This document shows, piece after piece, positions 53,753 to 64,000 of a stretch of DNA of 64,000 bases. Made by a program: the position numbers and the translations under genes. Below the pieces are notes generated by a model. That model was not told where the DNA came from and made no database searches. It saw only the letters and a program-made list of their open reading frames with translations. The stretch spans positions 42,323 to 106,322 of the forward strand of contig JBBDYC010000003.1 of the NCBI GenBank assembly GCA_040901985.1, in the 5' to 3' direction. The stretch's first letter is position 1; each line of letters opens with the position of its first letter. The DNA is from Gemmatimonadaceae bacterium (lineage in GTDB: Bacteria; Gemmatimonadota; Gemmatimonadetes; Gemmatimonadales; Gemmatimonadaceae).

Positions 53753-56665
53753 TCACGGCATCCGGACGCAGTCGGTCGAGACGAAACCGGGCTTCACTTT
53801 TTCTCCCAGCGGAAACCCTGGTCCGGTGATTGCCTCACCGCGCGCCTCTCGCGTTGCGCACTCGGCGTTGAGTCCGGCGAGCGCAGCGAGGATGTCCTTC
53901 TTCGCGGAGAACCCGTACGCCTCGCGAACGGCGAGGTCAAGGCGGGCCTGGGCGTCGTTCAGCGGATGCTTGCCCGGCTTCTCGGCGGCGCGGTAGAGCT
54001 CCCGGAGCGAGAGTCCGTGCTGTTCGCGCAGTGACGCGCGCAGTGCGCGCAGCTCACGCGCCGCGTCGGCAACGGCCCTGACGGCACGTGCGGTTGGCGC
54101 CTGCGGCCACGGGAACGTGTCGAAGACCGTGTTGGACGTGTAGCGAAAATCTCCCTTCATGGTTGAACACCGCTGAACGAACCACTGCCAGTGAGCGCCC
54201 GACTGCAGGATGCCGAAGGAGTAGTCGTCGTCGAAGGGGAACACCATCAACGCGTCGTTCGGATGAATGGCCGGACTGATGAACTCAAAGATCGGACGCT
54301 TCGTGACGCGGCCGCAGGCGATGTAACGGGGCAACGACGAGATCTCACGCATTAGTTCCTGGCGACTCCAGAACAGCAGCCACCACGCCCTGAGCGCCTG
54401 CGAGTGGTGCTTCCCACCTGCGTCAGCGGCGTCGGCACTTGCCGCCTCGGTGTTGCGCAGAGATTCCGCGGAGGCCTTCGCCAGCTTTGCCGGCAGCACC
54501 AGGCGTTCGACCCGAGCAAAGAGTTCCTTGTGGGTCTGCGCCGCCAGGAGGTCGCGCGTTCCAAAGTCAATCACATACCGCGTCGGCAACGAGTCCTCGG
54601 CGCCAATGAGCTCGTTCGCAATCAGAAACGGAAAGAGCACGGCCTTGTCGCGCGGATGACTCGCGAGGTGCGCCTCCGCCTCCTTGCGCGGCATCAGGAA
54701 GCCCTCGTGTCCGTGCGTCTGCCCCTGATAGCAGTTTCCCGACTCCGCATTCGCGCGCAGCACCTCGACATCCGTCACATCCGTCTCAAACGAGAGTGCC
54801 GAGTTGATGCTCTTCGGTGCGGTCGCCTCCCACGGCGAGTCCTCGGCGTCGCCGACCTGGCGCATCAAGCGCTTCGGCCCGTCCGACTCCCCCTTGACCC
54901 AGTTCACGATCGAGACGTGCACGGCGGCATCCCCTGACCAGACCTGGGTGGAGACCGCATCAGTGATCGTACCGCCGGTTCGCACGATGTGATCCAGTCC
55001 GCCCTCGCGACTGTAGTTCTGCCGAATGGTGTTGGTGCCGACGAGGCCGGCGCGTTGGCCCAGCTTGAGCTCATCGTGTGCGCGCCGAAACCAGTACACG
55101 CAGTAGTCCGCGCGGCCGGGAACGTCGGGATACCGCTTGCGCACGCGATTCACATACGCACGCCCCAGCTCCACCTGCATCTTGTTCTTGCTCTGAAACG
55201 GCGGGTTCCCAATGATTGCGTGAATCGTTGGCCATTCGGCGAACAGCGCGTCCTCGCGGCGCAGGTTGTCATCGAGATTCTCGAGCGGGAGGGCGTGGTC
55301 ACCCTGCAGGTCGAGGTCAATCTGAGCGCGATCCAACGCGTCGTGTACCTCGTCCAACGCGAGCTTCTTCCCGAATACCAACGTGACCTTGGCGAGCTCG
55401 ACGGCAAACGGGTCGATGTCAAATCCGAAGAACTGGCGCGGACTGACGAGTGACAGCGTCTGCACCTGTTTCTTGAACACAGCCGGTGTCACGAGCGATT
55501 GCATTCGCAGCAGAAGGACGATCTCCAGACGAATCAGCTCGCGGAACGCCAAGTAGAGGAAGTTGCCACTGCCACAGGCCGGATCGAGCACACGAAACGC
55601 GAGCAGTTCCTCGCGAATGCGCGAGAGCTCCTTGAGCGTCTTTGCTCCCGCAATCCGCGCTTCCCAGGGCCGAGAGACCGTGGGCGTGATGACCTTCATG
55701 ATGTCGCGCTCGGCCGTGAAGTGCGCCCCGAGCGCGTGGCGTCGCTCGGCGTCCATACTCGACTGAAACAGTGTGCCGAAGACCGCCGGGTTGATCCTGG
55801 CCCAGTCGGTGTCTGCGGCTTCACCGATTGCCGTGAGCTCCGTGACGCCGAGATCAATCGGGTCAATGGTCGCGAACAGGCCACCGTTGAAATAGGGCAC
55901 GCCCTTGAACCGACCAGCGGAGGCCGGAGTCGTGCTGTTCATCTGGCGGAACAGTCCACCCATCAGATCGAAGCTGCTTGCGCCGGCGAAGCAATCCTTC
56001 ACGATGCGGCTCATCGTCCCGGCCGGCATCAGCCCCACGTCCTCGGCGAACATTGCCACGACCATCTGCAGTACGAAGCGCTGCGCGCGTTCACGATCCT
56101 CGCCCTTCGCCACAAGCGAGCGAAAGACCTCCGCAATCCGTTCAGCCGCCTCGCGAGTGACCGCTTCGCGGTCGTTCCCGAATAGCGGGTCTGGGTTCTC
56201 CGGGAACAGGAAGCTCAGCGCGAGGTGACGTCGCGGCAGCTCCTCGATCCGAACGACATCGACCGGCTGGTCAATCTGCTTGTCGAAGTCGTAGATCCAG
56301 AACTCGTCGAAGTTGCAGAGCACCACGTATCGCGGTCGGTTGGGGACGAGGTTGACCCAGTAGTCGAACGCCTGGCGGAAGTGCAGTTGCAGGCGCTCGC
56401 CGCGCTTCTTCATCTCGATCAGGACGCGCGGCTTCCAGACAAGGTCGGCGAACTGCGTGCCGGTTGACACACCCTTCCGTTTCACTCGGTGCTCGAGCGT
56501 GGCGCCGGCCTCCTTGTACCCAGCGTGACCGAACGCACGGAAGAGACGATCGCAGAAGACCTGGGCCTCGCCCTTTTCGTCGCCCGCGAGGCCGCGCCAG
56601 TACTCGACGAAGGCCTTCAGACGGTCGGCAGTGCTTGCTTCGGCGTGGTTTGACAGAGCGTTCAT
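53753..56665 (-). CDS. MmeI-like type IIL restriction-modification enzyme (nuclease + N6-adenine MTase + TRD)
   Basis: FADLVWK..LIEMK (PD-(D/E)xK), FNGGLF, GAHFT, VLDPACGSGNFL, IIGNPPF, ADYCVYWF and FDTFPWP. Codon usage is visibly AT-richer than the flanks. Confidence 0.88.
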   Translation of the reverse strand: MNALSNHAEASTADRLKAFVEYWRGLAGDEKGEAQVFCDRLFRAFGHAGYKEAGATLEHRVKRKGVSTGTQFADLVWKPRVLIEMKKRGERLQLHFRQAFDYWVNLVPNRPRYVVLCNFDEFWIYDFDKQIDQPVDVVRIEELPRRHLALSFLFPENPDPLFGNDREAVTREAAERIAEVFRSLVAKGEDRERAQRFVLQMVVAMFAEDVGLMPAGTMSRIVKDCFAGASSFDLMGGLFRQMNSTTPASAGRFKGVPYFNGGLFATIDPIDLGVTELTAIGEAADTDWARINPAVFGTLFQSSMDAERRHALGAHFTAERDIMKVITPTVSRPWEARIAGAKTLKELSRIREELLAFRVLDPACGSGNFLYLAFRELIRLEIVLLLRMQSLVTPAVFKKQVQTLSLVSPRQFFGFDIDPFAVELAKVTLVFGKKLALDEVHDALDRAQIDLDLQGDHALPLENLDDNLRREDALFAEWPTIHAIIGNPPFQSKNKMQVELGRAYVNRVRKRYPDVPGRADYCVYWFRRAHDELKLGQRAGLVGTNTIRQNYSREGGLDHIVRTGGTITDAVSTQVWSGDAAVHVSIVNWVKGESDGPKRLMRQVGDAEDSPWEATAPKSINSALSFETDVTDVEVLRANAESGNCYQGQTHGHEGFLMPRKEAEAHLASHPRDKAVLFPFLIANELIGAEDSLPTRYVIDFGTRDLLAAQTHKELFARVERLVLPAKLAKASAESLRNTEAASADAADAGGKHHSQALRAWWLLFWSRQELMREISSLPRYIACGRVTKRPIFEFISPAIHPNDALMVFPFDDDYSFGILQSGAHWQWFVQRCSTMKGDFRYTSNTVFDTFPWPQAPTARAVRAVADAARELRALRASLREQHGLSLRELYRAAEKPGKHPLNDAQARLDLAVREAYGFSAKKDILAALAGLNAECATREARGEAITGPGFPLGEKVKPGFVSTDCVRMP

Positions 56666-56776
56666 TCTCGAATGGGCGATGCTTGCGGCCGGTCAATGCA
56701 ACTGGCTCGGCGTGTCATGGTCACGGAACTAGCGTCCAAACGTAAGTTATTGTGAACAATAGTGTTAGTATCTGTT

Positions 56777-56872
56777 TGCGGCGATTATAGCCACATTCAC
56801 CGCAAAATATGCGTCAAATACTTGCCCCAATCGCCGCACCACCGTATATTCACCGCAACTTCTGCGGTGAAC
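56777..56872 (+). promoter_or_regulatory. Fic promoter with six 10-bp operator-like boxes (consensus AWTCRCCGCA)
   Basis: TTGCCC(56822)-N17-TATATT(56845). Boxes at 56777(-), 56795(+), 56810(-, degenerate), 56829(+), 56848(+) and 56863(-). Confidence 0.75.
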
Positions 56873-57996
56873 AATGCCATACATCCACACCCTCCCAAAC
56901 TGGCCAAACTTGACTTGGCGGGCCGAACTCCTCGCTGACCGCTTGGCGTCGGTTCGCCACCGCCAAGGAATCCTGACCGGGAAGCTGCAATCACTCGGGA
57001 TCGAGATCCGGCGTGAGGCGAGCCTTGCGTCCCTGACCACCGAGGTCGTGACGTCGTCGGCAATCGAAGGCGAGCGACTTCCGCCGGACGAGGTGCGCTC
57101 CTCAATCGCCAGACGCCTCGGGCTGGACGCGGCAGGACTCGTGCCCTCCGCTCGTCGGGTGGACGGCGTGGTGGAGATGATGCTGGATGCCACGCGAGAA
57201 TATCAAGCGCCGCTCACGGCCGAGCGACTCCTTCGCTGGCACTCGGCCCTCTTTCCGACGGGCCTGACGGGGATGCGACCAATCACCGTGGGCGCGTGGC
57301 GCACGGACGCGCTGGGGCCGATGCAGGTGGTGTCCGGGCCACTGGGGAACGAGCGCGTCCACTTTGAGGCACCCGCTGCAGCGCGACTCCCGTTGGAGAT
57401 GCAGCAATTCCTCGACTGGTTGAATGCCGCCGAGCCGATGGACCCGGTGATCAAGGCCGCGGTCGCGCACTTCTGGTTCGTGACCATTCACCCCTTCGAC
57501 GACGGCAACGGTCGCATCGCGCGTGCGATTGCCGAGCTGGCGCTGGCGCGGTCCGACGGAACGCCGGACCGGTTCTACAGCATGTCCGCACAGATCGAAG
57601 CGGAGCGGAACGACTACTATCGCGCGCTCGAGTTCTCGCAACGGGCGGACCAGGACATCACGCGCTGGATCGAATGGTTCCTCGGCTGTCTCGGCCGCGC
57701 GTTCGATCGGGCGGAGGGAACGCTCGCACGGGTCTTTCGAGACGCTGCGATCTGGGAGCTCGCCAACCGGTCCGGCGTGAACGAGCGGCAACGGCGCGTG
57801 CTCACGCGCGTGTTGGGGGCGTGGGAAGGCCAGCTTACGACGTCCAAGTACGCGATGATCGCGAAGTGCTCGAGCGACACGGCGCTCCGTGACATCCAAG
57901 CGCTGGTCGAGCACCGAATCCTCGCCAAGAACCCAGCGGGTGGGCGGAGTGTCAGCTATCGCCTTGCTGACACTCTCCCCGATGATACTTCCGCGC

Positions 57997-59615
<1,619 letters not shown>

Positions 59616-59619
<4 letters not shown>

Positions 59620-61880
59620 GACTTCTCGGGTGTGCGCGTGCGCTGTTGGGCATCAATCACGGCGACCGCCGCCATGTTGACGATCTCCTCGACGTCGGCG
59701 CCCTGTTCCAGCACGTGCACCGGATGCTGCATACCGACGAGAATGGGGCCGATCGCCGTGGCCCCGCCCAGCTTGGTGAGCAATTTATACGCGATGTTGC
59801 CCGCGCTGAGATTGGGGAATATCAGCACATTCGCGGCCTCCTTCAATGCGCTGAACGGAAAACGCGATGCGAGGATATCGGCGCTGAAGGCGGTGTCGGC
59901 CTGCATCTCGCCGTCCACCACGAGTTCCGGGTCGCGGAGCCGCAGCAGCCGGACGGCCTCCGCCACCTTCTCCGTCTCCGGGTGCTTGACCGAGCCGAAG
60001 TTGGAGAAGGAGAGCATCGCGATCCGCGGCGAGACGCCGAAGGTGCGCGCCAGCCCGGCCGCCGAGATCGCGATCTGGGCCAGCTGCTCCGCCGACGGGT
60101 CGATGTTCACCGTCGTATCCCCGAAGAAGACGATGTGCTTCTCGAAGACCAGCATATAGAGGCCCGAGGCGAGGCCGATCCGGCGGTCGGCGCCGATGAC
60201 CTCGAGGGCGGGCCGCACCGTCTCCGGGTAGTGCTTGCCGAGCCCGCCGAGCAGGGCGTCGGCGTCGCCGCAGGCGACCATCACCGAGCCGAAGACCGTC
60301 GCGCGGGTGACGCGGTTGCCGGCCTCGACGAGCGAGAGTCCCTTGCGCTGCCGGCGCTGCCAGAGGTAGTGCGCGTAATGTTCGCGGCGCGGACTCGAGG
60401 TCGGGTCCTCGACCGTGATGCCGTCGAGTTCGATGCCGAGCCCCTCGGCGGTGGCGTAGACGCGCTCCTTGCGGCCGAGGAGGATCGGGATGGCGATCCC
60501 CTCGTCGTGGAGGATCTGCGCCGCGCGCAGGATCTTCGGGTCCTCGCCTTCGGGGAAGACCACGCGCCTGGGGTCGCGGCTGGCCCGCGAGGCGAGGCCG
60601 CGCATCAGTCCGCGGGCCCGGCCGAGCCGCGCCTCGAGTTGGTCGCGGTACTCGTCGAGCTCGATGAACTCCTTGGCGACGCCGCTCGCCACCGCCGCCC
60701 ACGCCACCGCCGGGGCCACGCGGAGCAACGCCCGGGGGTCGAACGGGAAGGGGATCAGGTAATCGGCCCCGAACTTGACGTTGCTCAGCCCGTAGAGCGC
60801 CGAGACGCTGTCCGGCACGTCCTCCTTGGCGAGGGCGGCAAGGGCGCGCGTCGCCGCCATCTTCATCTCCTCGTTGATCTCCGTTGCCCGAGCGTCCAGC
60901 GCGCCGCGGAAGATGAACGGGAAGCCGAGGACGTTGTTCACCTGGTTGGGATGGTCGGAACGCCCGGTGGCGATGATGGCATCCGAGCGGACGGCACGGA
61001 CCTCGTGCGGCTGGATCTCCGGTACCGGGTTGGCCAGCGCGAAGATGATGGGCTGCTTGGCCATCGTGGCCACCATCTCGCCGGTGACGGCCCCCGCCAC
61101 CGAGAGCCCGACGAACACGTCGGCCCCGACGAGCGCGTCGGCGACGGTGCGTGCCTTGGTCTTCCGGGCGAAGCGCGCCTTGTACGGGTCCATCCCCGTC
61201 GTCCGGCCGTCGTGGATCACGCCCTCGCGGTCGCACAGCAGGATGTGCTCGCGCCTGACGCCGAGGCGCACGTAGTGCTCGGCGGTCGAGATGGCCGCCG
61301 CGCCGGCGCCGGAGAAGACGATCGTGATCTTCGTGATGTCCTTGCCGGTGACCTCGAGCGCGTTGAGCAGCGCCGCCCCCGAGATGATCGCCGTCCCGTG
61401 CTGGTCGTCGTGGAAGACTGGGATCTTGAGCGTCTTCCGGAGCGTCTCCTCGATGTAGAAGCACTCCGGCGCCTTGATGTCCTCGAGGTTGATCCCGCCC
61501 ACCGTCGGCTCGAGCAGTTGGCAGAATCGGATCACGTCCTCGGGGTCCTCGGAACCCACTTCCAGGTCGAAGACGTCAATGTCGGCGAATTGCTTGAAGA
61601 GGTTCCCCTTGCCCTCCATCACCGGCTTGCCGGCGAGCGCGCCGATGTTGCCCAGGCCGAGCACCGCGGTGCCGTTGGTGACGACGGCAACCAGGTTCCC
61701 CTTGGCGGTGTACTTGTAGGCATCCTCCGGGGTCGCCTTGATCTCGAGGCAGGGTTCGGCGACGCCGGGGGAGTAGGCGAGCGCGAGGTCGCGCTGGTTG
61801 GCCAGCGGCTTGGTCGGGACGACGGCGATCTTGCCGGGTCGGCCGCGGGCGTGATACTCGAGGGCATCCTCTCGCTTCAT
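59616..61880 (-). CDS. maeB: NADP-dependent malic enzyme with PTA-like domain
   Basis: [35 protein letters not shown], then VFPEGE and DGEMQAD. ATGA overlap with pckA. Confidence 0.96.
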
Positions 61881-61964
61881 CGGGCGGAATCTAGCGCATC
61901 CGGCTGGGTGCCGGAGGCGCGCGAGGGCTTGTCATCCTCCCAAGCGGACGCTACGCATTCACCA

Positions 61965-62348
61965 ATGGCCGTCGTTGCCTCGTCCTCCAGTGTGATCACG
62001 CGCGTCCCCCGGCGTGGCCGTTGCGCGCGCGTGATCGCGGGCCTCTGGCTCTTGGCCCACGTGGGCGTGGTGGCGGCGGTGCCGGTAATCGACGCGCGGG
62101 CCGGCCATGCCGACCGCGTGGTGGCGCACTGGGAGGACGCCAACGACACCAGTTGTCCGGCGCAGCACGACCTCGCGGCGTGTCAGCTCTGCCAGCAGGT
62201 GGTGGCGGCCGGAAAAGTCACGGGGGCGACGACGGCACTGGTGGGGGTCCTGACGCCGGCCGAACGACCGCCGGTGGACGTGCGCGAGCGTCCACATCGG
62301 TCGGTCGCGAGCGCAAACCCCTCGACGCGGGCGCCACCGGCCATCTGA
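61965..62348 (+). CDS. DUF2946/CruR/CutF-like leader protein with CxxC and C-terminal RAPP motif
   Basis: Hydrophobic N-terminal segment, HWED...CPAQHD..ACQLCQ and a terminal STRAPPAI. Directly upstream of a TonB receptor. Start is ATG 61965 or GTG 61992. Confidence 0.78.
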   Translation: MAVVASSSSVITRVPRRGRCARVIAGLWLLAHVGVVAAVPVIDARAGHADRVVAHWEDANDTSCPAQHDLAACQLCQQVVAAGKVTGATTALVGVLTPAERPPVDVRERPHRSVASANPSTRAPPAI

Positions 62349-62410
62349 GTCAGCGCCGCGCCCACTCGGGGCCGTGCGCCGGTGTGTCACTCCTGACTCG
62401 GTATCGCCAC

Positions 62411-64000
62411 ATGACTCGTTGCCCTTCCGACCGCCTCCTGCGGTCCGTCCTTGCATTCACGGTGCTGGCCGTCTCTCCTGCATCACTTCGCGCATTGCCG
62501 TCCTCGACGCCCGACGCCGGGGCGCCGGCCGTCATCGGCACGGTGTTGGACAGTGCCGGCGCTCCGCTGGCCAACGCCTACGTGGTCGTCGCCGAGGTCG
62601 GTCGCACGACCTCGACGAACGCGGCGGGCGTCTTCGTCCTGCGCGGGCTCCCGCCGCGCGAGTACCATCTCAATGTCATGCTCCTCGGTTACGCGCCCGG
62701 GCACGCCGTGGTCACCGTGCCGCCCGAAGGCGAGGACGTGCTGGTCACGATCCGACTCGTGGCGACGCCGCTGCGCCTGACGTCCATCATTGTCAGCGCA
62801 TCGGCCACTGGCACCGAGGCCGACCGGCTCACCCAGGCAGCGCTGGAGCTCTCCGGCCGCGCGCTGGCGCGCTCACTCGGGTCGTCGGTGGCGTCAACAC
62901 TTGCCGGCGAACCCGGTGTCAGCCAGCGCTACGCCGGTCCCGCCGCGAGCATGCCGGTGATCCGGGGGCTCACCGGCGACCGCATCCTGGTCCTGCAGGA
63001 CGGCGAGCGCTCGGGCGACCTCGCTGCGTCGGCCTCGGACCACGCGGTCTCGGTTGATCCCCTCGCTGCGCAGCGCATCGAGGTTGTTCGCGGTCCGGCG
63101 TCGTTGCTCTACGGCAACAGCGCGCTCGGCGGTGTGGTCAACGTGGTCTCCAACGATATCCCGACGGTGGTACCGTCGCACCTCGAGGGCCAGATTGGCG
63201 CGCAGGGCGAGTCAGCCACGCCGGGCGGCGCAATCAGCGCCGGAATCACGGCAAAGGCCGGTGCGCGTGGGGCGGTCTCGGTCCGCGGCGGCCATCGCGA
63301 CATGGGCGCGTTGCGCACCGGCGGCGCGGTCACGCTCGGCGGCACCGATTCGCGCGCCTCGAATGCGACCGTCGGCTACGGCTTCATCGGTGAGCGCGGG
63401 AATGTGGGGGTCGCCGTCCGCCTGTTTGACTTCAACTACGGCCTCCCGGCCGAGGCGGGGGACCCGGAGTCGGGCGTGCGGATTGACGGGCGCCGCGTCG
63501 GCGTCAGCGCGCGCGGCGGGATCCAGTTCGGCAGCGTGTCCCTTCCGTACCTCCGCGTCGAGGGTACCGCCCAGGACTACACGCACGACGAGGTCGAACC
63601 CGACGGCGAGATCGGGACGACCTTCAAGCTCCGTACGCAGACCGCGAATGCGCAGGCGACCACGGCCTTTGGCCGAGTGAAGGGCGCGATCGGGGTGCAG
63701 GGACTGTTCAAACAGTACAACGCCACCGGCGAGGAGGCGCTGACGCCCGGCGCGAACTCGACCGGCATCGGGGTGTTCCTCTATCAAGAGCTACCGCTCG
63801 GAGGGAGCGACGCGGCCGAGGGCGGGACGCAGCTGCAGGTCGGCGCCCGCTGGGATGGCTATGGAATCGCGTCCGAGACCGGGGAGGCGAAATTCGGTCC
63901 CGGGCGCACGGTCAGCTTCGGCAACGCGTCGGGGTCGCTTGGGCTGAGTGTGCCCGTGGGGACACAGGTGACGGTCAGTGGCTCGGTGGCGGGGGGGGGG
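62411..64000 (+). CDS. TonB-dependent receptor, ZnuD-like (partial, runs off window)
   Basis: Read from ATG 62411 (absent from the ORF track): signal peptide, carboxypeptidase-regulatory-like domain, plug PVIRGL...SDHAVSVDPLAAQRIEVVRGPASLLYG..ALGGVVNVV, and DYTHDEVE. Confidence 0.88.
   Translation, partial: MTRCPSDRLLRSVLAFTVLAVSPASLRALPSSTPDAGAPAVIGTVLDSAGAPLANAYVVVAEVGRTTSTNAAGVFVLRGLPPREYHLNVMLLGYAPGHAVVTVPPEGEDVLVTIRLVATPLRLTSIIVSASATGTEADRLTQAALELSGRALARSLGSSVASTLAGEPGVSQRYAGPAASMPVIRGLTGDRILVLQDGERSGDLAASASDHAVSVDPLAAQRIEVVRGPASLLYGNSALGGVVNVVSNDIPTVVPSHLEGQIGAQGESATPGGAISAGITAKAGARGAVSVRGGHRDMGALRTGGAVTLGGTDSRASNATVGYGFIGERGNVGVAVRLFDFNYGLPAEAGDPESGVRIDGRRVGVSARGGIQFGSVSLPYLRVEGTAQDYTHDEVEPDGEIGTTFKLRTQTANAQATTAFGRVKGAIGVQGLFKQYNATGEEALTPGANSTGIGVFLYQELPLGGSDAAEGGTQLQVGARWDGYGIASETGEAKFGPGRTVSFGNASGSLGLSVPVGTQVTVSGSVAGGG

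Follow-up and report, generated by a model that had tools for sequence, protein, structure and literature searches.

A conserved CruR-like leader gene of Gemmatimonadota as a candidate zinc-sensing ribosome-arrest switch for a ZnuD-like receptor

Only two leaders of the DUF2946/CruR type have been worked out, both respond to copper, and they do so with opposite logic. In Bordetella pertussis, CruR (Bp2923) is the leader of cruR-bfrG(crtA)-bp2921 and is reported to carry a CxxC motif and a RAPP motif at a functionally constrained spacing of 45 residues; copper releases the arrest, Rho then terminates, and zinc has only a moderate effect (PMC9426467). In the cutFOG operon of Rhodobacter capsulatus, CutF is described as having a CxxxC motif and a proline run, and its copper-induced stall opens a hairpin holding the Shine-Dalgarno (SD) sequence (PMC9973294; bioRxiv 10.1101/2025.02.05.636593); CutF-like proteins are said to be common in Bacteroidota (PMC9973294). 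Arrest in vitro has been reported for CruR and seven Streptomyces RAPP/RGPP peptides, and upstream open reading frames ending in RAPP/RGPP before TonB receptors have been called universal in Gram-negative bacteria, in a survey whose text does not sort the receptors by substrate (PMC12992588). Orthologues of cruR have been linked to copper receptors (PMC12914433), and a zinc context for the DUF2946 family is in print, without a mechanism, because a DUF2946 gene is described as the first gene of a Zur-activated efflux operon, czrCBA-zntA, in Caulobacter (PMC4176598). Here we describe a leader gene of this kind, situated before a ZnuD-like TonB-dependent receptor, in a 64,000-nucleotide stretch of a Gemmatimonadaceae genome (JBBDYC010000003.1:42,323-106,322, assembly GCA_040901985.1), which is referred to as the window and whose own positions are used throughout.

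The leader gene (61965-62348, plus strand; ATG at 61965, TGA at 62348) encodes 127 residues and ends in RAPPAI. Its hydrophobic export segment occupies residues 24-42 (62034-62090, plus strand), with a mean hydropathy of 2.2 in the best 19-residue stretch; from hydropathy only, it would be either a signal peptide or an uncleaved anchor. A conserved P40-x-x-D43 stands at the end of the segment, and helix 19-47 of an AlphaFold2 model of the leader spans it. The predicted metal site, defined by conservation across leaders, consists of H55, E57, C64, H68, C73 and C76 (62127-62192, plus strand), of which the CQLC (CxxC) portion is 62181-62192. The putative RAPP arrest motif (62328-62339, plus strand) lies two codons before the stop and 45 residues after CxxC, and a 62-nucleotide spacer leads to the receptor ATG at 62411. 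The sequence-only reading of the window had proposed the export-like N-terminus, the His/Cys cluster, the RAPPAI end and the 62-nucleotide distance to a TonB receptor, all borne out by the translation and hydropathy of the leader, except that the position it gave for the cluster, 62181-62192, is right for CQLC and too narrow for the whole. It had also placed the leader at the end of a spurious 900-residue open reading frame; this frame (59646-62348) is present, ends in the leader and is antisense to the maeB malic enzyme gene (59616-61880, minus strand). The codon-usage model of this genome scored the leader frame at +17 and the five other frames at -3 to -85. The missing SD before the receptor, noted earlier as well, is real and nothing special, since GGAG, GAGG or AGGA occurs at -16 to -4 in only 447 of 1478 ATG-starting genes and an SD-less start is the majority state in this genome.

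Judged by profile scores, the leader is a divergent branch at the edge of the DUF2946 family. PF11162 (DUF2946) was its only Pfam family match (21.1 bits, E = 5.5e-4), and the proposed kinship held in this hidden Markov model comparison, though below the cut-off of 23.7 bits; the leader relatives that we scanned reached at most 23.1 bits. Some more distant matches carry a precomputed PF11162 mark, UniRef names the Gemmatimonas groenlandica member DUF2946, and there are Gemmatimonadota clusters in the Atlas with 11-13% DUF2946 members. In layout the leader is CruR-like: it is the first gene of its unit, has an export signal and a CxxC 45 residues before a C-terminal RAPP, precedes a TonB-dependent importer, and is predicted to let metal switch uptake off. 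Unlike CruR, its conserved core is H-x-E...C-x3-H...C, with the second CxxC cysteine often lost, its receptor is ZnuD-like rather than CrtA/OprC-like, the 162-nucleotide spacer and Rho termination give way to a short spacer whose predicted stem covers the start, and no copper-homeostasis family was recognised downstream of 99 leader hits. In output it is probably CutF-like, an exported leader with a predicted stem-loop over the initiation region of the next gene that a stall would melt. However, CutF combines CxxxC and a proline run with a copper-induced stall and a detoxifying oxidase as target, whereas here C-x3-H and CxxC are combined with RAPP, an importer lies downstream and the predicted effect of metal is to end the stall. 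CxxC plus RAPP had been ascribed to CruR and CutF alike, which is correct for CruR and not for CutF as described in bioRxiv 10.1101/2025.02.05.636593. With the open reading frames reported in PMC12992588 the leader shares a small secreted product, a C-terminal RAPP/RGPP and a TonB receptor downstream. A non-proteobacterial version of the mechanism had also been suggested; Gemmatimonadota do carry the leader, but this is not new in kind, given the described Bacteroidota CutF-like proteins and the Gram-negative-wide RAPP frames.

Sequence searches with the leader returned 7 and 71 matches, and 75 of the 77 leader proteins were aligned, leaving out one fragment and one 3180-residue protein. H55, C64, C73, P124 and P125 were invariant in the 75 aligned sequences; P40, D43, E57, P65, H68 and R122 were kept in at least 90%, and C76 in fewer than 90%. 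We then counted ligands in 149 distinct leaders, a set biased towards conservation because it was chosen partly by motif and profile: H55 was present in 142, E57 in 142, C64 in 133, H68 in 148, C73 in 148 and C76 in 118. The second CxxC cysteine, C76, is the most variable residue of the site and is lost in about a fifth of the leaders, being replaced by His in four, as is C64 in five. The C-terminal motif read RAPP in 119, RGPP in 26 and TGPP in 4, and 145 of the 149 had R[AG]PP within 1-5 codons of the stop. C76 and the Arg were 43-46 residues apart in 138 of the 140 leaders measured, so that the linker, 45 residues here, is fixed in length while unconserved in sequence; a hydrophobic N-terminal segment was found in 130 of 140. 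The extra His/Cys ligands remarked on beforehand held up; H55, H68 and C73 proved to be the invariant elements, kept in 142-148 of the 149 leaders, and the expected conservation of CxxC and RAPP before orthologous receptors was seen for the RAPP-type end and not for CxxC, which is not invariant (C76 in 118 of 149). A TGPP clade (L023, L024, L028 and L090) lacks the second CxxC cysteine where the site was seen; it is a natural test of the need for Arg.

Furthermore, the leader was found by a non-circular route anchored on the receptor. Among 58 distinct loci of related receptors with at least 350 nucleotides upstream (8 shorter ones were set aside), 54 had the leader upstream, confirming conservation in syntenic homologues. 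At locus L053 the receptor has no intact leader, and upstream of 6016 a short open reading frame remains that resembles the first residues of a leader, which suggests loss by deletion. As a gauge of chance, the pattern H-x(2-5)-C-x(38-55)-[RT][AG]PP near a stop and ending at most 400 nucleotides upstream of a gene, occurred before 3 of the 2288 called genes of this genome, the receptor among them. No other RAPP leader in this genome matched the family profile, and the His/Cys layout was present in only this leader among the seven frames listed. A profile of 59 leader sequences matched 258 of 401 Gemmatimonadota genomes (a count that takes in one unpublished genome, G197), the receptor relatives are Gemmatimonadota records, a metagenome scan gave only 4 loci, and one carrier, Gemmatimonas groenlandica (WP_171224031.1), is in culture. 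The leader is a conserved, phylum-wide gene.

These patterns bear on two explanations that do not involve metal-controlled arrest. In the first, the leader product is simply a secreted metal-binding peptide whose gene shares a transcript with the receptor gene; RAPP is incidental and nothing is regulated in cis. A periplasmic chaperone could well have an export signal and metal ligands, and 4 of the 58 receptors do without a leader; however, a linker of constant length and free sequence, the position of R[AG]PP next to the stop and the constant place of the leader at the head of its unit make this extremely unlikely. In the second, the leader would monitor export or disulfide formation in the manner of SecM or ApdP, with the cysteines probing redox state or folding. 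Control of sec genes by RAPP peptides that bear export signals has been reported (PMC12992588), and disulfides are part of the CutF model (bioRxiv 10.1101/2025.02.05.636593). We nevertheless hold a monitor of this type to be very unlikely, as H55, E57 and H68 are conserved as well as the cysteines, the exchanges of C64 and C76 for His are those expected of metal ligands, and the downstream genes are metal transporters.

The receptor gene (62411-64000, on to G000:C3:107022, plus strand) encodes a ZnuD-like TonB-dependent receptor with an N-terminal carboxypeptidase-regulatory-like domain. Just past 64000 it crosses a 10-N scaffold gap flanked by G runs, beyond which lie its last 230 codons; the G run at 63993-64000 borders this gap inside the gene, and the arrangement is likely an assembly artefact because related receptors are continuous there. 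As the sequence-only reading had surmised, the receptor is ZnuD-like: among NCBIfam models and PDB structures its best match was ZnuD (4rdr, E = 5.9e-40; next, 6e-15). The ZnuD model NF038289 gave 126.5 bits for the window fragment, against 15.9 bits for a TonB-copper model, and 171-236 bits for five full-length relatives. The zinc ligands reported for Neisseria meningitidis ZnuD, Asp99, His100, Glu340 and His499 (PMC4557270), all four of them buried, align with D210/H211 (63038-63043), E394 (63590-63592) and a His beyond the window, counted along the 4rdr alignment with an offset of +14 in the deposited sequence. This tetrad was kept in 55 of 55 full-length receptors found by receptor anchoring and in 28 of 47 found by leader anchoring. 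Unlike ZnuD, the receptor has the extra N-terminal domain and low overall similarity, and the long His/Asp-rich loop 3 was not seen in its alignment; Neisseria znuD is Zur-controlled, and no Zur-like gene was found in this genome. The remaining 19 of the 47 form a distinct class named for the plug motif 'GSLNE', with no ligand match, no PDB match and an uncharacterised substrate. Receptors of this class (L108:3623-5959, L125:816-3206 and 17 more) replace the ZnuD-like receptor behind close-kin leaders and are candidates for a new metal importer. In the genus of the window, about half of the genomes have another ZnuD-like receptor (32-36% identity) at this site beside maeB (L018-L031), with leaders of the same clade in front and a 152-residue lipoprotein behind, a replacement in place.

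To see what else follows the leader, we sampled 90 loci, namely the 30 best hits, the window's own among them, and 60 stretches picked from 150 listed of about 305 matches, favouring two-hit genomes; a few of the loci overlap. Of the 99 leader hits in this sample, 74 stood directly before a TonB receptor gene, 15 before a porin-like gene, one before a TolC-like gene and two before some other gene, and for 7 no next gene was called; lipoproteins were also among the downstream genes. The porin-like gene was followed by a ZnuA/AztC-type binding protein in 13 cases and a ZnuB/AztB permease in 12. These binding proteins were closest to the zinc-binding AdcAII/AdcA/ZnuA structures, and 11 of the 13 have a His at the third ligand position, which marks zinc rather than manganese binders. 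In one genome (L043) a receptor unit and a porin-ZnuA unit lie side by side, each with its own leader. A leader tree, poorly resolved (107 columns) and used only for the interleaving of receptor classes, required the porin-ZnuA label to change 4 times, no fewer than 2 of these changes being forced by well-supported branches, and placed ZnuD-like and 'GSLNE' receptors alternately behind near-identical leaders. In this genome ZnuA was not found and a ZIP transporter is present. The porin-like gene, about 420 residues long and without a good family match, heads ZnuA/ZnuB operons behind the leader at L043:3886-8174 and at L107-L113, L116, L117, L119, L122, L136 and L146, and several of these operons have no ABC ATPase gene in the called set. 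At L101:1036-1365 (minus strand) a second, divergent leader heads the TolC-like efflux gene, back to back with a leader-receptor unit; efflux, too, may be under the control of such leaders, perhaps with the logic reversed.

Zinc is our best guess for the sensed metal, narrowed from the earlier choice of zinc, nickel or cobalt by guilt by association. The same arrest leader might instead respond to copper, nickel, cobalt or manganese, or to several metals. Both characterised family members sense copper, the CxxC and spacing in the window match CruR, His-rich CutF-like proteins have been linked to nickel/cobalt transporters (PMC9973294), the ZnuD tetrad is missing in 19 of the 47 leader-linked receptors, and binding proteins of Cluster A-I carry Mn/Fe too. 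Against this, no copper chaperone, oxidase or OprC-type gene was recognised downstream of the 99 leader hits, the copper model fell far behind ZnuD on the receptor, and two unrelated zinc-type uptake systems share the leader family. We consider another metal unlikely.

Taken together, these observations led us to propose, with about even confidence for and against, that the conserved DUF2946/CruR-like leader is a zinc-sensing ribosome-arrest switch for the ZnuD-like receptor, in which scarce zinc causes a stall and the receptor is made. By analogy with CruR and other RAPP peptides, the ribosome would arrest when the Pro codons of RAPP (62334-62339) occupy its P and A sites. Counted from the P-site Pro, C73 would then be 51 residues away and H55 69; as the ribosome tunnel is reported to hold roughly 30 residues (PMC4571824), the metal site would lie outside the ribosome, at the translocon or past it. 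On binding, zinc would fold this site, pull the chain and release the arrest, a step that we would place at the translocon or the periplasmic face; in an engineered construct, zinc-driven folding is reported to release SecM arrest (PMC4571824). After release the ribosome would finish, the stem would re-form and receptor synthesis would fall. The direction, with metal as the off signal, is presumed because the downstream genes are importers.

The stem in question is predicted to close between a 5' arm at 62345-62353 (plus strand), which overlaps the leader stop codon, and a 3' arm at 62393-62401 (plus strand), which covers -18 to -10 from the receptor ATG, the 30S landing region; an inner hairpin at 62353-62379 (plus strand) appears in the centroid structure. 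The closing helix is present in both the centroid and the minimum-energy folds of the spacer. If its footprint is taken to reach from -12 to +18 relative to the P site (62322-62351), a stalled ribosome would cover most of the 5' arm, and would open the receptor start region because the last codons of the leader are predicted to pair there. When 20 spacers were scored, most of them from the closest clade, 16 proved to retain the core helix, with the first stop base paired as U-A in 9 and U-G in 7 and the base before it as C-G in 8, U-A in 3 and G-C in 1, a table that leans towards pairing as the best register was picked per sequence. With spacer lengths of 62-128 nucleotides, the 3' arms did not align in MAFFT, so that the pair table is no alignment-based covariation count. 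In other clades RAPP and the following codons are themselves an anti-SD. An ensemble test of 117 leaders (32 of the 149 were skipped, 25 without an ATG at 55-140 nucleotides and 7 without a downstream gene) gave at least 4 expected base pairs between footprint and start in 75; of 214 co-directional gene pairs from this genome that served as controls, 43 reached this level. The share was 15 of 15 for porin-ZnuA units and 31 of 47 for the window's receptor group. A stalled ribosome lowered the predicted cost of opening the start by a mean of 2.4 kcal/mol versus 0.5 in controls, and by at least 3 kcal/mol in 45 of 117 leaders versus 22 of 213 controls; pairing and opening counts alike overstate significance because kin are not independent.

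A zinc-sensing leader could also act through Rho, as in CruR, with the stalled ribosome shielding a Rho utilization (rut) site until release of the arrest allows Rho to terminate transcription upstream of the receptor gene or inside it. Rho is present in this genome, the last 150 nucleotides of the leaders show a C-over-G skew of +0.09 (n = 141) versus -0.03 in controls, 78-nucleotide stretches across 62355-62492 are C-rich (32/22, 31/17 and 33/18), and one clade has no stem. However, taken as a whole the window leader has more G than C (148 against 132), its spacer is structured and, at 62 nucleotides, short beside the 162 of CruR, and pairing with the start region is kept in most clades. We regard an output through Rho as distinctly unlikely, more so than a change of metal, and it can coexist with the stem.

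Several results weigh against the proposed zinc switch and its stem. Besides zinc, His/Cys sites accept Cu, Ni, Co and Cd, and in one case the gene behind the leader encodes a TolC-like efflux protein. The receptor falls far short of the 950-bit ZnuD cut-off, its full-length relatives reaching about 200 bits, and the 19 'GSLNE' receptors lack the ZnuD ligands. Confidence in the predicted metal site is low in the AlphaFold2 model (predicted local distance difference test about 65; predicted template modelling score 0.38), with which a fold search found no match. The spacer of the window folds no better than shuffles (z-scores -0.09 and -1.39), the window leader has 0.7 expected footprint-to-start pairs in the long fold, and its opening-cost drop is 0.1-1.9 kcal/mol by the length of upstream RNA included. 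In a second receptor clade the stem was no better than controls, with at least 4 pairs expected in 6 of 23 leaders and an opening cost that fell by at least 3 kcal/mol in 1 of 13. In a simple duplex test cognate arms paired at -17.4 versus -15.6 kcal/mol for permuted partners (0/10000), but arms shifted by -90, +33 and +63 nucleotides paired as well or better, and the test was replaced by the ensemble tests with genomic controls because shifted arms were not beaten. Finally, the engineered zinc-finger release is reported to act at 24-26 residues, inside the tunnel, and not at about 50 (PMC4571824).

Transcription may begin close to the leader start. A predicted sigma-70-type promoter (61929-61958, plus strand) has a -35 element at 61929-61934, a 17-nucleotide spacer and a -10-like element at 61952-61958, 6 nucleotides before the leader ATG, and this -35/-10-like pair directly before the start suggests a leaderless or nearly leaderless mRNA. 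The same layout was found before 29 of 136 leaders versus 40 of 949 background genes; a strict consensus scan found nothing before the leader. Rfam gave only two chance-level matches in 61700-62600, and no intrinsic terminator was found in 61800-62500. No operator palindrome was seen by eye in 108 regions upstream of leaders, where no motif search was made. The single Fur-family gene of this genome best matches Fur. The notion of a Zur-free phylum was not supported, as a third, short Fur-family type, which may be Zur-like, occurs among 20 Fur-family loci from relatives. This type (L184:1965-2336, L187:2091-2417, L190:1954-2280, L191:1976-2350 and L195:1931-2323) adjoins ZIP or MerC-like genes in 3 of the 5 loci, has no NCBIfam classification and is absent from this genome's matches; it may be the Zur of the phylum. 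Elsewhere in the window, an MmeI-like restriction-modification gene (53753-56665, minus strand) and a Fic/DUF4172 gene (56874-58055, plus strand) lie between pckA and an HD-domain gene; 53753-58055 is probably an inserted defence islet because pckA and the HD-domain gene adjoin in L035, L036 and L042.

In the literature outside subscription journals we found no zinc-sensing arrest leader, and none before ZnuD-like or ZnuA genes. The main text of PMC12992588 mentions neither zinc nor Gemmatimonad, though its source data may list these proteins, and PMC9426467, in three text supplements, mentions none of Gemmati, Bacteroid, Acidobacter or ZnuD. Leaders with RAPP ahead of TonB receptors have already been published; the zinc version, as read from sequence here, was not found in print. 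A wider proposal, which we put forward tentatively and think less probable than the switch at this locus, is that zinc uptake in Gemmatimonadota is run by natural zinc-released arrest peptides sensing periplasmic zinc. One leader family (H-x-E/C-x3-H/C) would then stand before ZnuD-like receptors, porin-ZnuA-ZnuB operons and 'GSLNE' receptors, the last as new zinc importers, and would be the main zinc switch in this genome, which yielded no Zur-like gene. The leader also serves as a marker that flags the 'GSLNE' receptor class and the porin as probable zinc-uptake parts. Its invariant ligands, C76-less variants, fixed linker and cultured carrier offer handles on how distant metal binding releases RAPP arrest. 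A zinc-released version, if true, would show the same scaffold of export signal, metal site, fixed linker and RAPP tuned by ligand changes, and periplasmic zinc would be readable without a transcription factor.

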